From the NCBI GenBank assembly GCA_963771275.1, contig CAVYSW010000003.1:1600001-1664000 (forward strand): a stretch of DNA of 64,000 nt, read 5' to 3'. This DNA comes from an uncultured Gemmatimonadales bacterium (GTDB taxonomy: Bacteria; Gemmatimonadota; Gemmatimonadetes; Gemmatimonadales; GWC2-71-9). Positions 8,160 to 45,176 of the stretch are shown piece after piece. A model generated the notes under the pieces. It was not told the origin of the DNA and made no database searches. It saw only the letters and a list, made by a program, of their open reading frames with translations. Position 1 is the first letter of the stretch, and each line of letters begins with the position of its first letter. The position numbers were made by a program, and so were the translations under genes.

Positions 8160-9740
8160 TCAGTAACCCGAATTCTGCGTCAGGTTCGGGTTGGCGATGA
8201 TCTCGTTCGCGGGCAGCGGGTAGAGGCTATCCCGCGCGGGCAAGGCGACCCCTCCCGGATCGTTGCCCTTCCAGGCCCAGACGTACGTGGCCCCGGTGAA
8301 CAGTCCAAAGCGGATCAGGTCGGCCCGGCGGCGTGTCTCGTACAGCAGCTCGCGCCCCCGTTCGGCAGAATCAGGAAGTCCAGCGTGAGCTCGGCGTCGG
8401 TGATGTCGCCGCTCGCGTCCCCGTACGCGCGCTGACGGAGCGCGTTGACGTAGGTCAGCGCCTGCGCCCGGCTGCCACCACCGCCACGGACCACGGCCTC
8501 GGCGTAGATCAGGTACGCCTCGCCCAGGCGGAAGATCGGGAAATCCGTGTCGACCATGCCAAGCTGCTGGCCATTGGTCCCGTCCGACTTCTTGTTCGTG
8601 AACTTGGGCGCGGCGATGCCGTTGGTGAAAGTGCCTTTGTCGATCACCGAATCCGTCTGACCGTCCGTCCAGAAGAACGCGGCCCGCCCGTCGAGCTCAG
8701 TGTCGAACTGGCGGTACGCCTGCTGCTTCAGGCGGTAGCCCCCCCAGCAGTAGTCGATGCCGTAGTCGGCTGACGACATGCTGCCGCCGCAGCCGGCGTG
8801 GATCAGGAACGTCATCCCGCCCCACGTCTGGGTGTGGTTGCCGTCCTGCAGGGCGGCGAAGATGATCTCGGGCGACAAGTTGTTGTCGGACGTGAAGTTG
8901 TTCCGGAAGACGGGATTCAGGCTGTACGTGCCCGAGCCGATGACGTCCTCCGCCGCGGTCACCGCGTCGGCCCAGTGCTCCGTGCCGGTGTAGACCTCCG
9001 CGTTCAGGTACAACTCGGCCAGCAGCATGTCCACGGCACCGGCCGTCGCGCGGCCGTAGGTGCTGGGCCCGGCCGTGGGCAGCTGGTCCCTGATGTCCTG
9101 GAGCTCGCTCACGACGAAGTCGAACAGCGCGGCCCGCGTGGCTCTGCTGCGGCGGCGTCGCGCCGAGCGGGTCCGCTTCGGTCACGAGCGGGATGTTCGC
9201 GAACAGATCAATCCCATGCCAGTAGCTCAAGGCCCTGAGAAACCGGGCCTCGGCACGGTACTGATGGACCTGGTCCGCGTAGTCGCTCTGTCCCCGCGCA
9301 TCGAGCGAGTCGTCCACGGTCTGGCGCAGGAACTCGTTCGCCAGCATGACCTGGTAGAAGACGCGGTAGTACATCGCGTTGACCATGCTGTTGTCCGCCC
9401 CCCAGAGCCCCGTGTTCAGATCGGGGAGACCGGGGTCGTTCCAGCCGATCACCGCCTCGTCCGTCGGCATCTCCTGGAGATACCAGTACAGTCTGAGGTA
9501 TTCTCCGAAGCCCTCGTCGATGCCGCTGATGTCCGGATTCCCGTCCGGCCCCCGTTGCCCGGTCACGATCAGCCCCGCGTAGATCCGCGCGAGGAACAGC
9601 TGATACGAGGCCGGATCGGTGAAGATGTTGGCTTCGGTCACCGTGCTCTTCGGAGCCACCGTGGGGTCCGTGCAGCCCGCCGCGGCCACGCACAGCAGGG
9701 CGGCGGCGACCGCGAACCCCTTCCACTTTCTGGTGTTCAT
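8160..9740 (-). CDS. susD: RagB/SusD family nutrient-binding outer-membrane lipoprotein, split by about 2 frameshifts (~9143, ~8366)
   Basis: MNTRKWKG..CVAAAGC lipobox, AEARFLRALSYW..DLF..IP, FPIFRLGEAYL.YAEA, ERGRELLYE..RR.DLIRFG, C-terminus NPNLTQNSGY* with stop at 8160. Confidence 0.88.
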
Positions 9741-40557: not shown

Positions 40558-41028
40558 CTAGCGACCGGGCGGGCCGGTGCAGCCCTCCCGGCGGCGGGTG
40601 TCCGCGATCTGGATGATCCGCCAGCCGTCGTCCATGCGGGCCAGCAGGAAGGCGTCCACGCCGCAGTGGGTGAGGGTGCCGTCCGCGTAGAACGCATACG
40701 GGGTCCAGACGGCGGCGAGATCACCGTCGATCCGGACCTCCGGATCCCAGAACTGTTCGTCCAGGTGGGCGGTCGCGCCCGCGACGCCGGCGATGAAGCG
40801 CGCGACCGGCACGGCGCGCACGACGACGTGCCCCTGCTGGTCACGTGCCGGTCCCGACAGGATGGCCTCCGGATGGAGCACCGCGTGGAGCGCCACGGTG
40901 TCCTTCGCCCGCATCGCGTCGAACAGGCGTTGCACGACCGCGATGACGTCGGCCGTCGCGTCCTGGGCGGGGAGCCGGGCCGGCGCCAGGCCGGCCAGCA
41001 GCATCAGGGTCACGGCGCCGGGCTTCAC
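40558..41028 (-). CDS. Exported NTF2/SnoaL-like protein
   Basis: GTG start overlapping the M16 stop, signal peptide, LFDAMR..D, IDG..A.VW.PY.F..DG...HCGVDAF.L.....GWRI...DT. Confidence 0.82.
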   Translation of the reverse strand: MKPGAVTLMLLAGLAPARLPAQDATADVIAVVQRLFDAMRAKDTVALHAVLHPEAILSGPARDQQGHVVVRAVPVARFIAGVAGATAHLDEQFWDPEVRIDGDLAAVWTPYAFYADGTLTHCGVDAFLLARMDDGWRIIQIADTRRREGCTGPPGR

Positions 41029-44000
41029 TGGCTTCCCCCCTGCTTGGCCTCCTCCGGCAGCAGCGTCACCTGCACGTAGTTGTCGAGCCGGAGGTAGCGC
41101 CGCGCCGCGTCCCGGATGGTCGCGGCCGTGAGGCCGCCGATCAGCTGATCGGCGGTCAGGATGGTGCGCGGATCGACGCTCCAGCGCTGGGCCGCCACGA
41201 GCTGGCCGAGCCAGTAGGCGTTCTGCTTCAGGCTGGTCTCCCGCGTGCGCAGCTGGGTCTCCATGACTTTGTGCACGATGGAATCGGACGGGCCCGCGCT
41301 CTGGAACGCCCGCAGCGTCGTGAACGTGCTGTCCACCAGCTCGTCGATGCGGGCGGGATCGGCGCCGAACCCGATGGAGACGCTGTACGTCGTGTCGGGG
41401 GCAATCGCGCTCGAGCCGCTGACGCCCACCCCATACACGCCGCCCAGGTCCTCCCGGAGGACCTCCCGCAGCCGGATGCTCAGGGCGTCCGCCAAGGCGC
41501 GCAGCGCGTAGCGGGCCTCCCGGCTGTCCTGGAACGGCCCGGTGAAGACGAGCTGCGTCCGCGCCTTGGGCTCCACCCCCTTGTGGACGACCTTGCGGAC
41601 GATCCCTGCGGGCGGCGGGATGTTGAGGTCGCGCCACGTCTCGTGCCGCCGGATCGACGGCAGGCCGCCGAGGTACTCCTCGACCAGCGGCCGGATGGCG
41701 GCGAGATCGATGTTGCCCACGAAGTAGAACGTGAAGTCGCTCGCGTCGGCGAACCGGTCGCGGTAGAACGCCATGGCGCTGCCGAGATCCACTTCCTGCA
41801 CGACGGCCGGCGTGAGGGGGCGCTCCCGGGGATTGCCCTGGGCGAGCGTCACCTGCAGCGTATCCTGGAAGTTCGCCTCCGGACTCGCCCCGCGGTTGGC
41901 CACGAACGCGAGCAGCCGCTGACGCAGCGACCCGAATGCGGCGCTGTCCAGTCGGGGTGCGGTCACGTACAGGTACGCCAGCTGGAACAGCGTCTCGATG
42001 TCCTTGGGGGAGGCGCTGCCGCGCAGCCCCTCCTCGGTGTCGTCGATCGAGGGGCCGACCCGGACGGCCTTGCCCGCCAGCACCTTCTGCAGGTCGACGG
42101 CGCTGAACGTCCCGACGCCCGACACGCCCACGATGCTGGACGCCAGCTCCGCCGACATGTACCGGTCGTCGGGGATCAGCGACGTGCCGCCGGGGCTCAC
42201 GGCCTGCATCAGCACCTCGTCGTCCTTGAAGTCGGTCGGCTTGAGCACGACCCGAACACCGTTGGCCAGCGTCCACTCGGTCACCCCGAGCTCCGGGATG
42301 GTCCGCTCCGCGACGATCGAGGAAGGCGTCGGCGCCACCGGCACCAGCGGCGCCTGCCCCAGGGTATCGGCGTAGGCCGCGATCTGCTTTCCCGCCACCT
42401 GGCCGAACACCGTGCTCAGCTCCGCCTCCGTGGGGACCGGCACGGCCGGCTTCTCGGGCGCGCTCACCAGCACCACCCGGTTCGCCGGGGTGATCCACGC
42501 GCGCGCGATACGGTTGACGTCGTCGAGCGTGATGCCCGGCAGGAACTCCCGCGCGAGAGCCAGCTCGGTCGTGATCCCCGGGATCGGTTCCTGCTCCAGG
42601 AAGTTGCGCCCGTACTCGTCGGCGTAGGTGCCCGATTCCGTCTTGGCGCGCTCGGCATAGGCCTGCTCCAGGCCGCGCAGCCTGCGCGCCTTCTCGCGCT
42701 CGAGCTCGGCGGGGGTGAACCCGAACCGCGCGACCCGCTCCGCCTCGGTGAGCAGCGCGTCGAGGCCCCGCACGGTGCCGCCGTCGCGCACCGCGGCTCC
42801 GAGCGAGAACACCTCTTTGGCGCCGATGAAGCGCCCCTGGCCCGCGCCCGCGCCGAGGACCGGCGGATCGGCCTTCTGGGACAGCTCGAAGAACCGGGCG
42901 TTCAGCATCGCGCTGAACAAGTCCTCGACGATGCCCTGCCGGTAGGCGCCAACCGTGGAGTGGTCCCGGAGGGCCTGCTTGTACAGCACGCTCACGCTGG
43001 TGTTGGTGGCCTCCTTGTCGCTCGCGATGGCGAACAGCGGCTCCGCGTGATCGGGCACGTCGATCGTCGGCCGCGGCCGCTCCGGCGACGGATTGCGCAG
43101 CGGCGCAAACCGCTCCCGGATCAGGGCTTCGATGGCCTTGGGATCGAAGTCCCCCACCGCGATCACCGCCATCATGTCGGGCCGGTACCAGTCCCGATAG
43201 AACCGCTTCAGCACCTCATGGCGGAACGTCCGGAGGATGTCGGGCTTCCCGATCGGCAGGCGCTCGGCGTATTTCGACCCCTGGAAGATGACCGGCAGCT
43301 GCTTGTCCAGCATGCGGGAGCCCGCTCCGCGTCCCAGACGCCACTCCTCGATGATGACGCCGCGCTCCTTGTCGGTCTCGACCGAATCGAACGTCACGCC
43401 GTCGGCCCAGTCCTCGAGGATCTGGAACGCCGTCTGCACGACGGACGCCGTGTCGGTCGGGATCTGCAGCATGTACACCGTCTCGTCGAAGCTCGTGTAG
43501 GCATTCACCTCCGGCCCGAACTTCATGCCGACCGACTCCAGGTAGTTCACCAGCTGCTGCTTCGCGAAGTGCCGGGTGCCGTTGAACGCCATGTGCTCGA
43601 CGAAGTGGGCCAGACCCTGCTGGTCATCGTCCTCGAGCACGGAGCCGGCGTGGACCACGAGCCGGAGCTCCGCACGGTGCTCGGGCTTGGCATTGGCGCG
43701 CACGTAGTAGCGCAGGCCGTTCGGCAACGTGCCGACGGTGACCTGCGAGTCCACCGGCAGCGGCTGGGCCGGCCGGTCCTGGGCGCCGAGCGCGGCGGGC
43801 AGGCCGAGCAGCAGCAGCACCGCGAGCGAGTGCTTGAAGCGGTCGAGATCGCGCCGCTGCTTCTTGGTGGGCCGGCCCTTGCCGTCGTAGAACGCGGTGG
43901 GCTGGGATCGCAGCTGGAGGGCCAGGGCCTCCCGGGCGCGCTTCGCCATCGGATCCTCCTCATACAGGGTGGCCGCGACCTTCGCGGGGCCGCGGTGCTC

Positions 44001-44213
44001 GGAGAGCAGCAACACCTTGAGCTTGTACTCGAACGGCCCGGCCCGGATCCGGATCCGGTCGCCGGTGTGCACATGCCGGGCGCGCTTCGCGCGCTCACCG
44101 TTCACGTCCACGCGGCCACCATCCAGCGCCGCCGCCGCGAGCGCGCGCGTCTTGAAGAAGCGCGCAGCCCAGAGCCATTTGTCGAGCCGGATCGGCGCGG
44201 CGTCGTCGGGCAA
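41025..44213 (-). CDS. In-frame fusion: Hsp15/HslR S4 RNA-binding domain + signal-like helix + M16B zinc peptidase (PqqL-like)
   Basis: GAGGAG-8 nt-TTG start. RLDKWLWAARFFKTR..A...GRV.VNG..AK, RGPA..A..LYEE, GRPTKKQRR, then LAVLLLLGLPAALGA-QD, LPNGLRYY, GLAHFVEHMAFNG, NAYTSFDETVY, LREVLRE..G.VY. Confidence 0.85.
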   Translation of the reverse strand: MPDDAAPIRLDKWLWAARFFKTRALAAAALDGGRVDVNGERAKRARHVHTGDRIRIRAGPFEYKLKVLLLSEHRGPAKVAATLYEEDPMAKRAREALALQLRSQPTAFYDGKGRPTKKQRRDLDRFKHSLAVLLLLGLPAALGAQDRPAQPLPVDSQVTVGTLPNGLRYYVRANAKPEHRAELRLVVHAGSVLEDDDQQGLAHFVEHMAFNGTRHFAKQQLVNYLESVGMKFGPEVNAYTSFDETVYMLQIPTDTASVVQTAFQILEDWADGVTFDSVETDKERGVIIEEWRLGRGAGSRMLDKQLPVIFQGSKYAERLPIGKPDILRTFRHEVLKRFYRDWYRPDMMAVIAVGDFDPKAIEALIRERFAPLRNPSPERPRPTIDVPDHAEPLFAIASDKEATNTSVSVLYKQALRDHSTVGAYRQGIVEDLFSAMLNARFFELSQKADPPVLGAGAGQGRFIGAKEVFSLGAAVRDGGTVRGLDALLTEAERVARFGFTPAELEREKARRLRGLEQAYAERAKTESGTYADEYGRNFLEQEPIPGITTELALAREFLPGITLDDVNRIARAWITPANRVVLVSAPEKPAVPVPTEAELSTVFGQVAGKQIAAYADTLGQAPLVPVAPTPSSIVAERTIPELGVTEWTLANGVRVVLKPTDFKDDEVLMQAVSPGGTSLIPDDRYMSAELASSIVGVSGVGTFSAVDLQKVLAGKAVRVGPSIDDTEEGLRGSASPKDIETLFQLAYLYVTAPRLDSAAFGSLRQRLLAFVANRGASPEANFQDTLQVTLAQGNPRERPLTPAVVQEVDLGSAMAFYRDRFADASDFTFYFVGNIDLAAIRPLVEEYLGGLPSIRRHETWRDLNIPPPAGIVRKVVHKGVEPKARTQLVFTGPFQDSREARYALRALADALSIRLREVLREDLGGVYGVGVSGSSAIAPDTTYSVSIGFGADPARIDELVDSTFTTLRAFQSAGPSDSIVHKVMETQLRTRETSLKQNAYWLGQLVAAQRWSVDPRTILTADQLIGGLTAATIRDAARRYLRLDNYVQVTLLPEEAKQGGSQ

Positions 44214-44318
44214 TGCCGGCACTCCTCGCGTACTGGGGTCGAGACGTCCTCGCCACCGCCTAAGGTCGCGTGGCCCGGCGCCGTCCGCAACCGGGGACCG
44301 CGCGGTAAGTTCCCCGCC

Positions 44319-45176
44319 ATGACCGTCGCCTTGGCAACCTGCGCCGCCCTGCCGGGCCTCGCGAGCGACGACCGGAGTCTCCTCGGCGCGTTGCGGGCGC
44401 TGGGGGTGGCGGCGGAGCCCGCCGTGTGGGAGGACCAGCTCTACGACTGGGCCGGCCTCCGCCTGTGCGTCATTCGGTCCGCGTGGGACTACGCGTATCG
44501 GCGGCCGGCGTTCGTGGCGTGGAGCCGGCGCGTCGCCGCGGTCACGACCCTGTGGAACCCGGCCCCGATCGTCGAGTGGAACACGCACAAGCGCTACCTC
44601 GTGGACCTGGCGGCTCGTGGCGTCCCCGCCGTTCCGACGATCGTGCTCCCGGCCGGCTCCGCCCCGCGGCTGTCGGAGGTCGTGGCCGGCCGGGGGTGGG
44701 ACGCGGTGATCCTCAAGGCGGCCGTCGCCCAGACCGGCCGGCACCTGCTGCGGGTCGACTCCACGGAGCGGCCCCGCGGCCAGGCGCACCTCGATCGCCT
44801 GCTGCCCCACGAAGACCTGCTGGTGCAGCCATTCCTGCCCCGCGTGACCGACGCGGGGGAGGTTTCGCTCGTGTTCATCGACGGCGCGTTCTCGCACGCG
44901 GTCCGAAAGCGTCCCGCCGCGGGGGATTTCCGGGTGCACGACGATTACGGCGGGAGTGTCGCCGCCGTCGAGCCGGCGTCGGCCGAGCGCGCGGTCGCGG
45001 AGGCCGCCATCGCCGCCGCCGGGACGCCGCTGCTGTACGCCCGCGTCGACCTCGTGCCGGGGCCCGCCGGACCGGTCGTCATGGAGCTGGAGCTGGTGGA
45101 GCCGGACCTGTTCCTGGGCTACGCGCCCGGCGCCGCAGAGCGGCTGGCGCGGGCGATCGTGGCGCGGCTGGGCTGA
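44319..45176 (+). CDS. RimK-like ATP-grasp protein
   Basis: IRS.WDY, WN..K.YL, VPT, VQPF, GE.SL.F..G.FSHAV.K, DFRV, YARVD, MELEL.EP.LF. Confidence 0.85.
   Translation: MTVALATCAALPGLASDDRSLLGALRALGVAAEPAVWEDQLYDWAGLRLCVIRSAWDYAYRRPAFVAWSRRVAAVTTLWNPAPIVEWNTHKRYLVDLAARGVPAVPTIVLPAGSAPRLSEVVAGRGWDAVILKAAVAQTGRHLLRVDSTERPRGQAHLDRLLPHEDLLVQPFLPRVTDAGEVSLVFIDGAFSHAVRKRPAAGDFRVHDDYGGSVAAVEPASAERAVAEAAIAAAGTPLLYARVDLVPGPAGPVVMELELVEPDLFLGYAPGAAERLARAIVARLG

Follow-up and report, generated by a model that had tools for sequence, protein, structure and literature searches.

The window, a stretch of 64,000 nucleotides from an uncultured Gemmatimonadales bacterium, contains on its minus strand a genuine single gene that encodes Hsp15 (HslR) and a PqqL-like M16 peptidase with a signal-peptide-like segment between them (Table 1). 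Direct reading of the sequence confirmed that the frame is open from 44939 down to the stop codon at 41025-41027, and that a complete Hsp15 (aa 1-128) runs into the 918-residue peptidase within it, as the first-pass annotation had described. The TTG codon at 44213-44211 is likely the start codon; relatives at 90-94% identity (P0003) have their called start at the matching position.

Table 1. Features of the fused gene and its surroundings (positions in the 64,000-nucleotide window)
Feature	Positions	Strand	Basis or remark
Fused gene: Hsp15 + internal signal peptide + PqqL-like M16 peptidase	41025..44213	-	1062 codons + stop; Pfam S4 + Peptidase_M16 + Peptidase_M16_C
AGGAG, 8 nt 5' of the TTG start (44211-44213)	44222..44226	-	Sequence read directly
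Hsp15 (HslR) module, aa 1-128	43830..44213	-	1dm9 and NF007673 alignments; ends at most 4 residues short of the E. coli C-terminus
S4 RNA-binding domain, Pfam PF01479	44052..44189	-	39 bits
Candidate internal start: AGGAGG 43960-43955, 5 nt, ATG codon 89 at 43949-43947	43947..43960	-	In frame
KKQRR core of the basic Hsp15 C-terminal helix, doubling as positively charged n-region	43851..43865	-	In 37/37 fused proteins
Putative internal signal peptide, h- and c-regions, S129-A144 = SLAVLLLLGLPAALGA	43782..43829	-	16 uncharged residues, ending LGA
Predicted signal peptidase I site, A144/Q145	43782-43784 / 43779-43781	-	LGA|QD; cleavage inferred
PqqL-like M16 zinc peptidase, predicted mature periplasmic form (aa 145-1062), one chain of four domains	41028..43781	-	918 residues
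HFVEH = HxxEH motif, aa 203-207	43593..43607	-	Sequence read directly

The N-terminal module was found to align with E. coli Hsp15 (1dm9) from query residue 5 to 128 and chain residue 6 to 129 of 133, with an E value of 6.8e-27, and its match to the Pfam S4 model lies well above the cut-off of 22.8 bits. The similarity spans the whole of Hsp15, including the long basic C-terminal helix (1dm9; positions 6-130 of 133 in the NF007673 profile). The module scored 92.9 and 97.8 bits, below the NF007673 equivalog cut-off of 148 bits; because only one of seven NF007673 matches in control genomes exceeded this value, the cut-off is tuned to enterobacteria. The combination of an S4 domain and a long basic C-terminal helix is that of E. 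coli Hsp15 (1dm9; ribosome complexes 8ap4 and 30qz), with 124 residues aligned. Unlike the E. coli protein, the module is not a stand-alone form of about 130 aa with a free C-terminus: the gene has no stop at this point, the frame runs on, and a hydrophobic export signal followed by a protease of predicted export stands in place of the last four residues. The fused module is the sole Hsp15 match in this genome. No RqcH-type NFACT_N match above cut-off was found in the genome, and E. coli is likewise without an RqcH partner.

The C-terminal part matches Peptidase_M16 (PF00675, 101 bits) and Peptidase_M16_C (PF05193, 127 bits), and carries HFVEH, which we take to be the zinc-binding, catalytic HxxEH motif of family M16. 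Its alignment with E. coli PqqL (6ofs_A; 287 bits, E 2.6e-84) runs from query residue 6 to 902 and chain residue 3 to 900, and both are single-chain four-domain M16 peptidases aligned end to end. A structural match far closer than PqqL, at 616 bits, is 9ldy_A, an unpublished PDB entry for which a literature search found no describing paper. According to PMC6793856, E. coli PqqL is periplasmic, belongs to protease-associated import systems and has its signal peptide cleaved in vivo. In the present protein, in contrast, the signal is internal, behind Hsp15, and the adjoining TonB-dependent receptor of the PqqL import systems is absent, because the four flanking genes encode ATP-grasp, FAA hydrolase, DUF4440 and NMO proteins.

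The segment between the two parts was compared in 37 fused proteins. Its uncharged length is 16.2 ± 0.7 residues (15-18), preceded by a basic KKQRR…K/R stretch. Position -1 is Ala in 36 proteins and Gly in one, position -3 is Leu in 21, Ala in 14, Val in one and Ser in one, position -6 is Pro in 33, and position +1 is Gln in all 37. A Sec signal has a basic n-region, an h-region of some 7-15 residues and a c-region whose -1 and -3 residues are small. These features are present here, but in an internal position, the segment beginning at residue 129 of the precursor or at residue 41 of a product made from codon 89. Stand-alone orthologues of the peptidase start with M-R/K...h-region...A-x-A|Q, that is, with ordinary N-terminal signals homologous to the internal one, and their uncharged run (16.6 ± 2.5) matches that of the fused proteins. 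Since these orthologues have their own M-R/K n-region before the same h-region, the earlier proposal that the basic Hsp15 tail supplies the n-region is borne out. The cleavage call was based on the -3/-1 rule and segment length. Because the segment fits a cleavable Sec signal in all 37 fused proteins, both in length and at positions -6, -3, -1 and +1, splitting of the polyprotein by signal peptidase, as first suggested, remains the best inference, and the best reading of the product is a putative N-in/C-out precursor that would be cut by signal peptidase I. The frequent Leu at -3 is a counterpoint to this reading, being tolerated by signal peptidase but not preferred. The genome contains two signal peptidase I genes and Peptidase_M50 genes, and no SppA (Peptidase_S49) was found in it at 96.7% completeness. 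The -3/-1 rule, and the cutting of membrane-spanning signal peptides by RseP, are described in PMC9360617.

In a family sample of 401 genomes from 78 genera, the junction was found to be open in all seven genomes of genus g1, to which the present genome belongs, and all three of a second genus, g53, and in none of the remaining 391, where Hsp15 is stand-alone. The S4 + M16 architecture envisaged for related genomes also recurs in public protein data from JGI, ENA, NCBI and Logan (36 clusters, 63-94% identity). Of 80 metagenome loci encoding M16 relatives, 2 have it as well. The junction region 43780-43860 is crossed without indels by contigs from runs of two other studies, one spanning 43516-43975 with 0 differences and the other spanning 43697-44400 with 4 substitutions and 0 gaps, so the misassembly that the first-pass annotation had kept as an alternative does not hold. 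Neither does a recent deletion joining two neighbours, since the fusion is shared by two genera at dS about 1 and the two genes are not neighbours in the relatives examined. A FastTree phylogeny of the M16 part (107 rows) placed all 35 fused rows in one 38-row clade with support of 94. A stand-alone protein, P0041, is nested inside this clade.

Selection was estimated from 11 loci (55 pairs) with dS about 1; across the junction, nucleotide divergence corresponds to dS of about 0.7-1. The dN/dS values were 0.18 for the S4 part (aa 9-88), 0.21 for the Hsp15 tail and 0.21 for the M16 part, indicating that both halves are under purifying selection; residues 9-88 are translatable solely as part of the fusion. 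The hydrophobic segment gave 0.58, its core drifting while -1 and +1 stay. These comparisons show a real gene fusion that arose once and has been maintained by selection within a clade of uncultured Gemmatimonadota. Comparison of fused and stand-alone sequences also shows its origin: the 3' end of the sole hslR came to run in frame into a gene for a PqqL-like M16 peptidase. The two genes meet within the peptidase's Sec signal, where its n-region gives way to its h-region, and the basic Hsp15 C-terminal helix …KKQRRDLDRFKH now serves as n-region.

The best explanation, which we regard as reasonably probable, is a selected fusion of single origin encoding an N-in/C-out precursor from which a signal peptidase I cut would free the protease. 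Translation from TTG 44213 would yield a 1062-residue precursor, whose Hsp15 part would fold in the cytoplasm. The hydrophobic segment (about 10 residues) with its P-x-x-[A/L]-x-A|Q end would engage Sec as an N-in/C-out internal signal, and the M16 part would be translocated. Cutting after A144 would release a periplasmic protease with an N-terminal Gln, and leave Hsp15 in the inner membrane with a 16-residue hydrophobic C-terminal stub. The stubbed Hsp15 may then stay in the membrane or, in the most speculative step, be freed by a site-2 protease. According to PMC8144685 and PMC9360617, the type II regulators RseA and FecR undergo a site-1 cut and then cleavage by RseP. The cut Hsp15 would resemble them as an N-in membrane protein with nearly no periplasmic stub, a potential substrate of an RseP-type site-2 protease, and enzymes of this type, whose Peptidase_M50 family is represented here, also cut leftover signal peptides. 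Unlike RseA and FecR, the fused Hsp15 has no anti-sigma function, and its site-2 processing is a proposal. A preprint (bioRxiv 10.64898/2026.04.23.720132) reports that the C-terminal helix of Hsp15 enters the mRNA channel of the 30S E site and that ribosome dwell time is lengthened when a HaloTag is added at the C-terminus, from which it can be argued that the Hsp15 tail must be freed. After cleavage, Hsp15 would keep a hydrophobic tail on the very helix that, according to the preprint, must act freely.

Besides the main start, a candidate internal start lies at codon 89, a new feature that the first-pass annotation missed. Its statement that no ATG or RBS precedes the hydrophobic segment stands for the last 39 codons, but fails at codon 89, where AGGAGG-N5-ATG is present. 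In all 12 distinct fused-clade loci, this codon is ATG (8) or GTG (4), and AGGAGG lies 5 nt upstream in 11 of them. Met or Val was found at position 89 in 33 of 37 fused proteins versus 1 of 70 stand-alone Hsp15 representatives. It is the sole M/V-mixed column among 420, and all four of its Val codons are GTG, whereas none of eight invariant Val columns is all-GTG. Position 89 is also the called start of an S4-less paralogue (7 members), which keeps the 40-residue tail at 50-65% identity to the fused tails, compared with 59-67% for the protease domain. The codon-89 product would have a leader of 56 residues, the first 40 from the Hsp15 tail. The SD-like AGGAGG is, however, largely forced by conserved Glu-Glu-Asp codons, and counts across sequences overstate the case because of shared ancestry. 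Genome-wide, 2406 AGGAGG sites are followed by just 36-59 ATGs at spacings 4-6, a weak SD-to-ATG signal; AGGAGG-N5-ATG occurs at 40 sites, 33 of them with a downstream frame of at least 100 aa, and 8 of these 33 lie deep inside open frames. Met or Val at 89 could be a lineage-specific residue. The four fused proteins lacking it sit in early-diverging fused lineages, where the branching order is unsettled: neither P0034 nor P0037 has a start codon there or next to it, and in P0035 and P0038 a Val occurs one residue further on. Use of an internal start had been named earlier as a finding that would speak against the polyprotein. A conserved candidate does exist, but the S4 part upstream of it is stop-free with dN/dS of 0.18, so the fused product must still be made. 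In the clade crown, this genome included, the codon-89 start probably also lets the protease be made alone, an estimate that stands close to even.

A further step is to read the locus as one gene with two starts serving both sides of the membrane, an unlikely extension. Hsp15 would be born as an N-in membrane protein, its release or activity would depend on Sec, signal peptidase I and a site-2 protease, and its helix would have been co-opted as a long basic leader for the protease, produced separately from codon 89. Retention of the 40-residue tail by the S4-less paralogue points that way. Because Hsp15 activity or release would depend on Sec processing, ribosome rescue would take place at the secretion machinery or be gated by it.

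The segment might instead be a permanent type II anchor, giving one bitopic protein with Hsp15 in the cytoplasm and the M16 part tethered in the periplasm. We consider this rather doubtful. The segment follows a folded domain of 128 residues and a strongly basic stretch, which favors an N-in orientation; the prevalent Leu at -3 is suboptimal for signal peptidase, and the preprint (bioRxiv 10.64898/2026.04.23.720132) expects a membrane-associated fraction of Hsp15 substrates. However, the uncharged segment has just 15-18 residues, and Pro at -6 in 33 of 37 proteins reduces its core to roughly 10, which is not enough to span the membrane stably. The fixation of -1 (A/G) and +1 (Q) in all 37 proteins while the core drifts is something that an anchor does not need, and the stand-alone orthologues have an identical site. 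Judging from the same preprint, a permanent tether on the C-terminal helix should also hinder Hsp15 release.

It is quite improbable that the protease is made essentially from codon 89 alone, with the full-length protein a minor by-product that is not productively exported, and Hsp15 either cytoplasmic with a large useless appendage or quickly degraded. The conserved ATG/GTG with AGGAGG 5 nt upstream is consistent with this, as is the weak TTG of the main start with AGGAG at 8 nt, and the S4-less paralogue shows that the tail and signal leader can head the protease alone. Yet the early-diverging P0034, P0037, P0035 and P0038 indicate that the fusion arose and persisted without the codon-89 start, and the constraint on the S4 part of the sole Hsp15 indicates that the full-length product matters. 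Moreover, with its Leu-rich segment exposed, a protein of 1062 residues in the cytoplasm would be at risk of aggregation, and a stop should by now have been reinstated by selection.

Functional coupling was the idea of the first-pass annotation: tethered Hsp15 would rescue translocon-stalled ribosomes while the periplasmic protease degrades aborted secretory chains, the two sharing substrates. Both genera have retained the fusion as their sole Hsp15, and the preprint (bioRxiv 10.64898/2026.04.23.720132) reports a slow membrane-associated Hsp15 state, attributed to 50S subunits with membrane-inserted nascent chains. Beyond the fusion itself, however, the proposal found no support, and we hold it to be very unlikely. 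Hsp15 adjoins this M16 family in none of 78 other metagenome loci and in none of 34 genomes outside genus g1, the genes lying in separate places, so the two families are unassociated outside the fused clade (391 of 401 genomes have stand-alone Hsp15). The S4-less paralogue and the nested stand-alone protease also do without Hsp15. Lastly, an artefact confined to one genome, whether misassembly, sequencing frameshift or very recent deletion, was for practical purposes ruled out by 10 independent assemblies of two genera, 36 clusters from four sources, the gap-free contigs and the divergence across the junction.

On the preferred reading of a cleaved N-in/C-out precursor, a Gemmatimonadota lineage has permanently joined its only ribosome-rescue Hsp15 to a zinc protease of predicted export by way of the protease's own export signal. 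To our knowledge, very few natural bacterial proteins have a folded cytoplasmic domain ahead of a cleavable export signal. The FbcH cytochrome b-c1 polyprotein of Bradyrhizobium japonicum also has a signal-peptide-like segment in mid-chain, which directs export of what lies downstream and at which the precursor is believed to be cut. FbcH, however, comprises two subunits of one membrane complex, whereas here a cytoplasmic ribosome factor is joined to an unrelated enzyme that would be soluble and periplasmic. With its helix welded to a membrane-inserting segment, the sole Hsp15 would either be freed by processing or work tethered. The dozens of junction variants over two genera form a comparative data set for the requirements of internal signals, and the codon-89 start, if used, would add a further case of two differently destined proteins in one frame. 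Public annotations call the fused proteins just 'insulinase family protein' or 'zinc protease'; because these labels name the protease alone, the Hsp15 of these genomes is unannotated. Bacteria of this Gemmatimonadota lineage inhabit soil and sediment.

In the window, an open minus-strand frame extends from 44939 down to a stop codon at 41025-41027, and encodes Hsp15 (residues 1-128), a hydrophobic segment (S129-A144) and a PqqL-like M16 peptidase (residues 145-1062). The first-pass annotation, which placed these three parts in one frame, described them correctly. Pfam S4 was detected within residues 1-128 (39 bits), and these residues were aligned to residues 6-129 of the 133 of E. coli Hsp15 (1dm9; E 6.8e-27). 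The NCBIfam Hsp15 equivalog profile was covered at positions 6-130 of 133, with a score of 92.9 bits lying under the cut-off of 148 bits. E. coli Hsp15 terminates with RFKHGDSE, whereas the fused frame continues with SLAVLLLLGLPAALGA, followed by QD. The downstream part is a 918-residue peptidase containing Peptidase_M16, Peptidase_M16_C and HFVEH. PqqL (6ofs) was aligned with it end to end (287 bits), but the unpublished PDB entry 9ldy_A, a 916-residue chain named 'Peptidase, M16 family', is far closer (616 bits); a literature search found no paper mentioning the 9LDY structure. A consensus scan of 40900-44450 yielded no promoter and no terminator, and is uninformative in this GC-rich genome.

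Features of the fused gene and its flanks in window coordinates
Feature	Position	Strand	Remark
FAA hydrolase gene			Upstream flank; conserved in genus
ATP-grasp gene	44319-45176	divergent	Upstream flank; conserved in genus
Likely start of fused gene, TTG	44213-44211	-	AGGAG 8 nt upstream; relatives at 90-94% identity called from same position
Candidate in-frame start, G-AGGAGG-ATCCG-ATG	43960-43947	-	40 codons ahead of hydrophobic segment
DUF4440/SnoaL-like gene	40558-41004	-	Downstream; begins 20 nt past fused-gene stop
NMO gene			Downstream flank

The fusion is genuine and conserved; it joins two known families via a retained export signal and has so far gone unremarked. A query of 218 residues spanning the join was matched without a stop codon in 7 of 7 genomes of the genus, g1 (70-81% identity outside the genome carrying the window). 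Outside the genus (34 genomes), the match to Hsp15 stops around residue 128, and any protease orthologue detected is encoded elsewhere. Across 78 genera of the family, represented by 401 sampled genomes, a spanning match was observed in two genera only, g1 (7/7) and a second genus, g53 (3/3), the best E-values of the remaining genomes being typical of Hsp15 alone. A search of a collection of 5.8 billion proteins, confined to those of 584-1859 aa, returned 36 clusters covering 96-100% of the query at 63-94% identity. These proteins have ~1050-1070 aa, contain S4 and M16 domains and come from JGI, ENA, NCBI and Logan; NCBI names one cluster merely 'insulinase family protein [Gemmatimonadota bacterium]'. 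The architecture that the first-pass annotation had proposed seeking in relatives is thus found in both genera and in public clusters. Contigs assembled from the runs of two other studies bridge the junction without an indel (X1 may represent the source sample). Together, the genomes, clusters and indel-free contigs rule out a misassembly or recent deletion.

Among 80 metagenome loci encoding protease relatives, Hsp15 was found in frame in two, and no Hsp15 motif was found within the locus in the other 78. None of the best 150 matches in a library of 50%-identity representatives spans both halves, a result uninformative on independent fusions elsewhere; fused proteins seem to be hidden there under stand-alone representatives. 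A literature search found no paper on Hsp15/HslR fused to M16 or insulinase, no bacterial match for 'internal signal peptide' with polyprotein and no entry on fbcH.

With its core of some 10 residues, its helix breaker and a site resembling A-x-A, the segment at the junction is consistent with a cleavable Sec signal and shorter than expected of a membrane anchor; the -3/-1 rule for signal peptidase sites is described in PMC9360617. Conservation in this segment is position-specific. The uncharged segment has a length of 16.2 ± 0.7 residues (15-18) across 37 fused proteins. At position -1, A is found in 36 of them and G in the remaining one; at -3, L (21) and A (14) predominate over V (1) and S (1). 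P occupies position -6 in 33, and every one of the 37 has Q at +1, while the sequence of the hydrophobic core varies freely. The uncharged run of stand-alone proteins was 16.6 ± 2.5 residues, a measurement in which five fused proteins were misfiled as stand-alone. Stand-alone protease orthologues open with ordinary signals, such as MRSIRRALALLVLLHAPAAA preceding QA in the related genome G010, and the closest stand-alone Hsp15 proteins terminate 4-6 residues past the R-F/W-K motif. Comparison of these ends indicates that the join replaced no more than a few C-terminal residues of Hsp15 and the signal's n-region. The genome encodes two tandem signal peptidase I genes (G000:C3:1048223-1049523, minus strand; 144.6 and 131.6 bits) and several Peptidase_M50 (S2P) genes, and no match to Peptidase_S49 (SppA) was found in it.

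Two other readings of the segment were rejected. Export by Tat is disfavored since the RR of KKQRRDL lacks the hydrophobic residues that come after it in the Tat consensus, and the core is Leu-rich. In-frame GTG, TTG and ATG codons inside the segment are unlikely to serve as starts: they vary in position by genome, with none in the fusion genome G005; they have no Shine-Dalgarno sequence upstream, and the product would be without an n-region.

The fusion is old and has a single origin. The M16 parts of 35 fused, 2 N-truncated and 70 stand-alone rows were used for a FastTree phylogeny, after removal of 14 short rows. One clade of 38 rows (support 94) takes in all fused rows, both N-truncated forms and one stand-alone protein, P0041. 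Both halves of the fused protein are under selection. By the Nei-Gojobori method, with 55 pairs of 11 fused loci at a dS of about 1 and therefore near saturation, dN/dS was 0.18 for residues 9-88 (S4 and α4, translated solely within the fusion), 0.21 for the Hsp15 tail, 0.58 for the hydrophobic segment and 0.21 for M16. Earlier values from the genus only, with coarser segments, were 0.21 for Hsp15 residues 9-128, 0.51 for the h/c segment and 0.27 for the N-terminal part of M16. The fused gene is the sole Hsp15 match in its genome (96.7% complete), in which no NFACT_N (RqcH) match above the cut-off was found. Among the nine other fusion genomes, extra Hsp15 pieces were observed in two: G005 (contamination 4%) has a stand-alone Hsp15, 54% identical, on a small contig (G005:C522:854-1234), and G002 has a 40-residue Hsp15-like fragment at a contig end (G002:C127:2-121). 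Contamination, a mixture of strains or genuine second copies could account for these pieces.

The candidate second start at codon 89 was unexpected. M (21) and V (12) make up most of this column in fused proteins, the others having S (2) or A (2). The 70 stand-alone Hsp15 representatives mostly carry E or A there, with a single V and not one M. All of these counts come from sequences that share ancestry. At the DNA level, the codon is ATG in 8 and GTG in 4 of 12 distinct fused-clade loci (L005 and L066, identical over 1150 nt, being counted once), AGGAGG lies 5 nt ahead in 11 of the 12, and no start codon occupies the position in 13 stand-alone loci. It is the sole M/V-mixed column in the first 420. 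Its Val codons are GTG in 4 of 4 cases, a uniformity seen in 0 of 8 invariant Val columns; the adjoining invariant Glu is always GAG, as in just 3 of 14 invariant Glu columns. However, AGGAGG is largely imposed here by conserved Glu-Glu-Asp codons. The genome contains 2406 AGGAGG sites with just a slight excess of ATG at spacings 4-6 (36, 40 and 59), which suggests that few of its genes are preceded by a strong Shine-Dalgarno sequence. Of 40 AGGAGG-N5-ATG sites, 33 precede an open frame of 100 aa or more; of these 33, 8 are located deep inside open frames. The chance that the codon-89 start is used is judged to be roughly even. Neither M nor V occurs at codon 89 in P0037 or in the P0034/35/38 group, four fused proteins from early-diverging lineages of the fused clade, although the basal branching order in FastTree is uncertain; the start was therefore probably acquired after the fusion.

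The g53 genome G064 contains a second copy (L128; G064:C7:25400-31000, open from locus base 1930) that lacks the S4 core, some 43 residues, and retains the Hsp15 tail, signal peptide and M16 domain. NCBI and other callers begin this protein (P0039, 971 aa, 7 members) exactly at an ATG aligned with codon 89 of the window gene, although recognizable Hsp15 remnants persist upstream of it. Its 40-residue tail is 50-65% identical to fused tails, and its M16 domain 59-67%. PF28601 is listed for fused proteins and probably covers the Hsp15 tail, because it is also present in both N-truncated forms. P0041 (941 aa), a protein of the JGI and Logan sets, opens with the ordinary signal MTRRVRDKQALQPRVLILLAAFGVPAAAEG preceding QD; its position inside the fused clade may reflect secondary fission, transfer or a gene-call effect. 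The start of P0040 (958 aa) lies within the Hsp15 tail, and this protein too may result from fission, transfer or gene calling.

The fused gene is not a new kind of system, and its mechanism is clearly testable. The internal signal would target the precursor to Sec, with Hsp15 remaining inside, signal peptidase I would cleave after A144, and the M16 protease would act in the periplasm, as PqqL does; PMC6793856 reports in vivo cleavage of the PqqL signal. More speculatively, the Hsp15 fragment, by then an N-in protein without a periplasmic stub, could be released by S2P. RseP is reported to cleave membrane-spanning signal peptides (PMC9360617; PMC8144685). In a 2026 preprint (10.64898/2026.04.23.720132), the C-terminal helix of Hsp15 enters the 30S E-site mRNA channel and a C-terminal HaloTag prolongs ribosome dwell time, which argues that the tail must be freed. 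The same preprint expects a membrane-associated fraction of Hsp15 substrates, leaving room for a tethered role. The coupling of translocon-side rescue to periplasmic degradation suggested by the first-pass annotation is conceivable; however, nothing beyond the fusion links the two families in the 34 outside genomes, 78 metagenome loci and 401-genome sample, and the S4-less paralogue and P0041 are cases in which the protease does without Hsp15.

Comparison of flanking genes found none shared between the fused locus and stand-alone loci in other genera. Conservation of the two upstream genes is confined to the genus, except for a 36% ATP-grasp match beside the Hsp15 gene of G028, and DUF4440 and NMO were not found downstream of 8 outgroup M16 genes. 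In the outgroup genome G037, Hsp15 and an M16 orthologue lie on one contig and strand about 7.5 kb apart (G037:C83:1114-1482 and 9019-9237), with the protease upstream of Hsp15, opposite to the fusion. The related genome G001 (L043) has a 70%-identical DUF4440/SnoaL-like copy immediately after the fused gene, and an NMO gene takes this place in G004. The DUF4440/SnoaL-like protein of the window has its own short hydrophobic N-terminus, ending in PA before QD.
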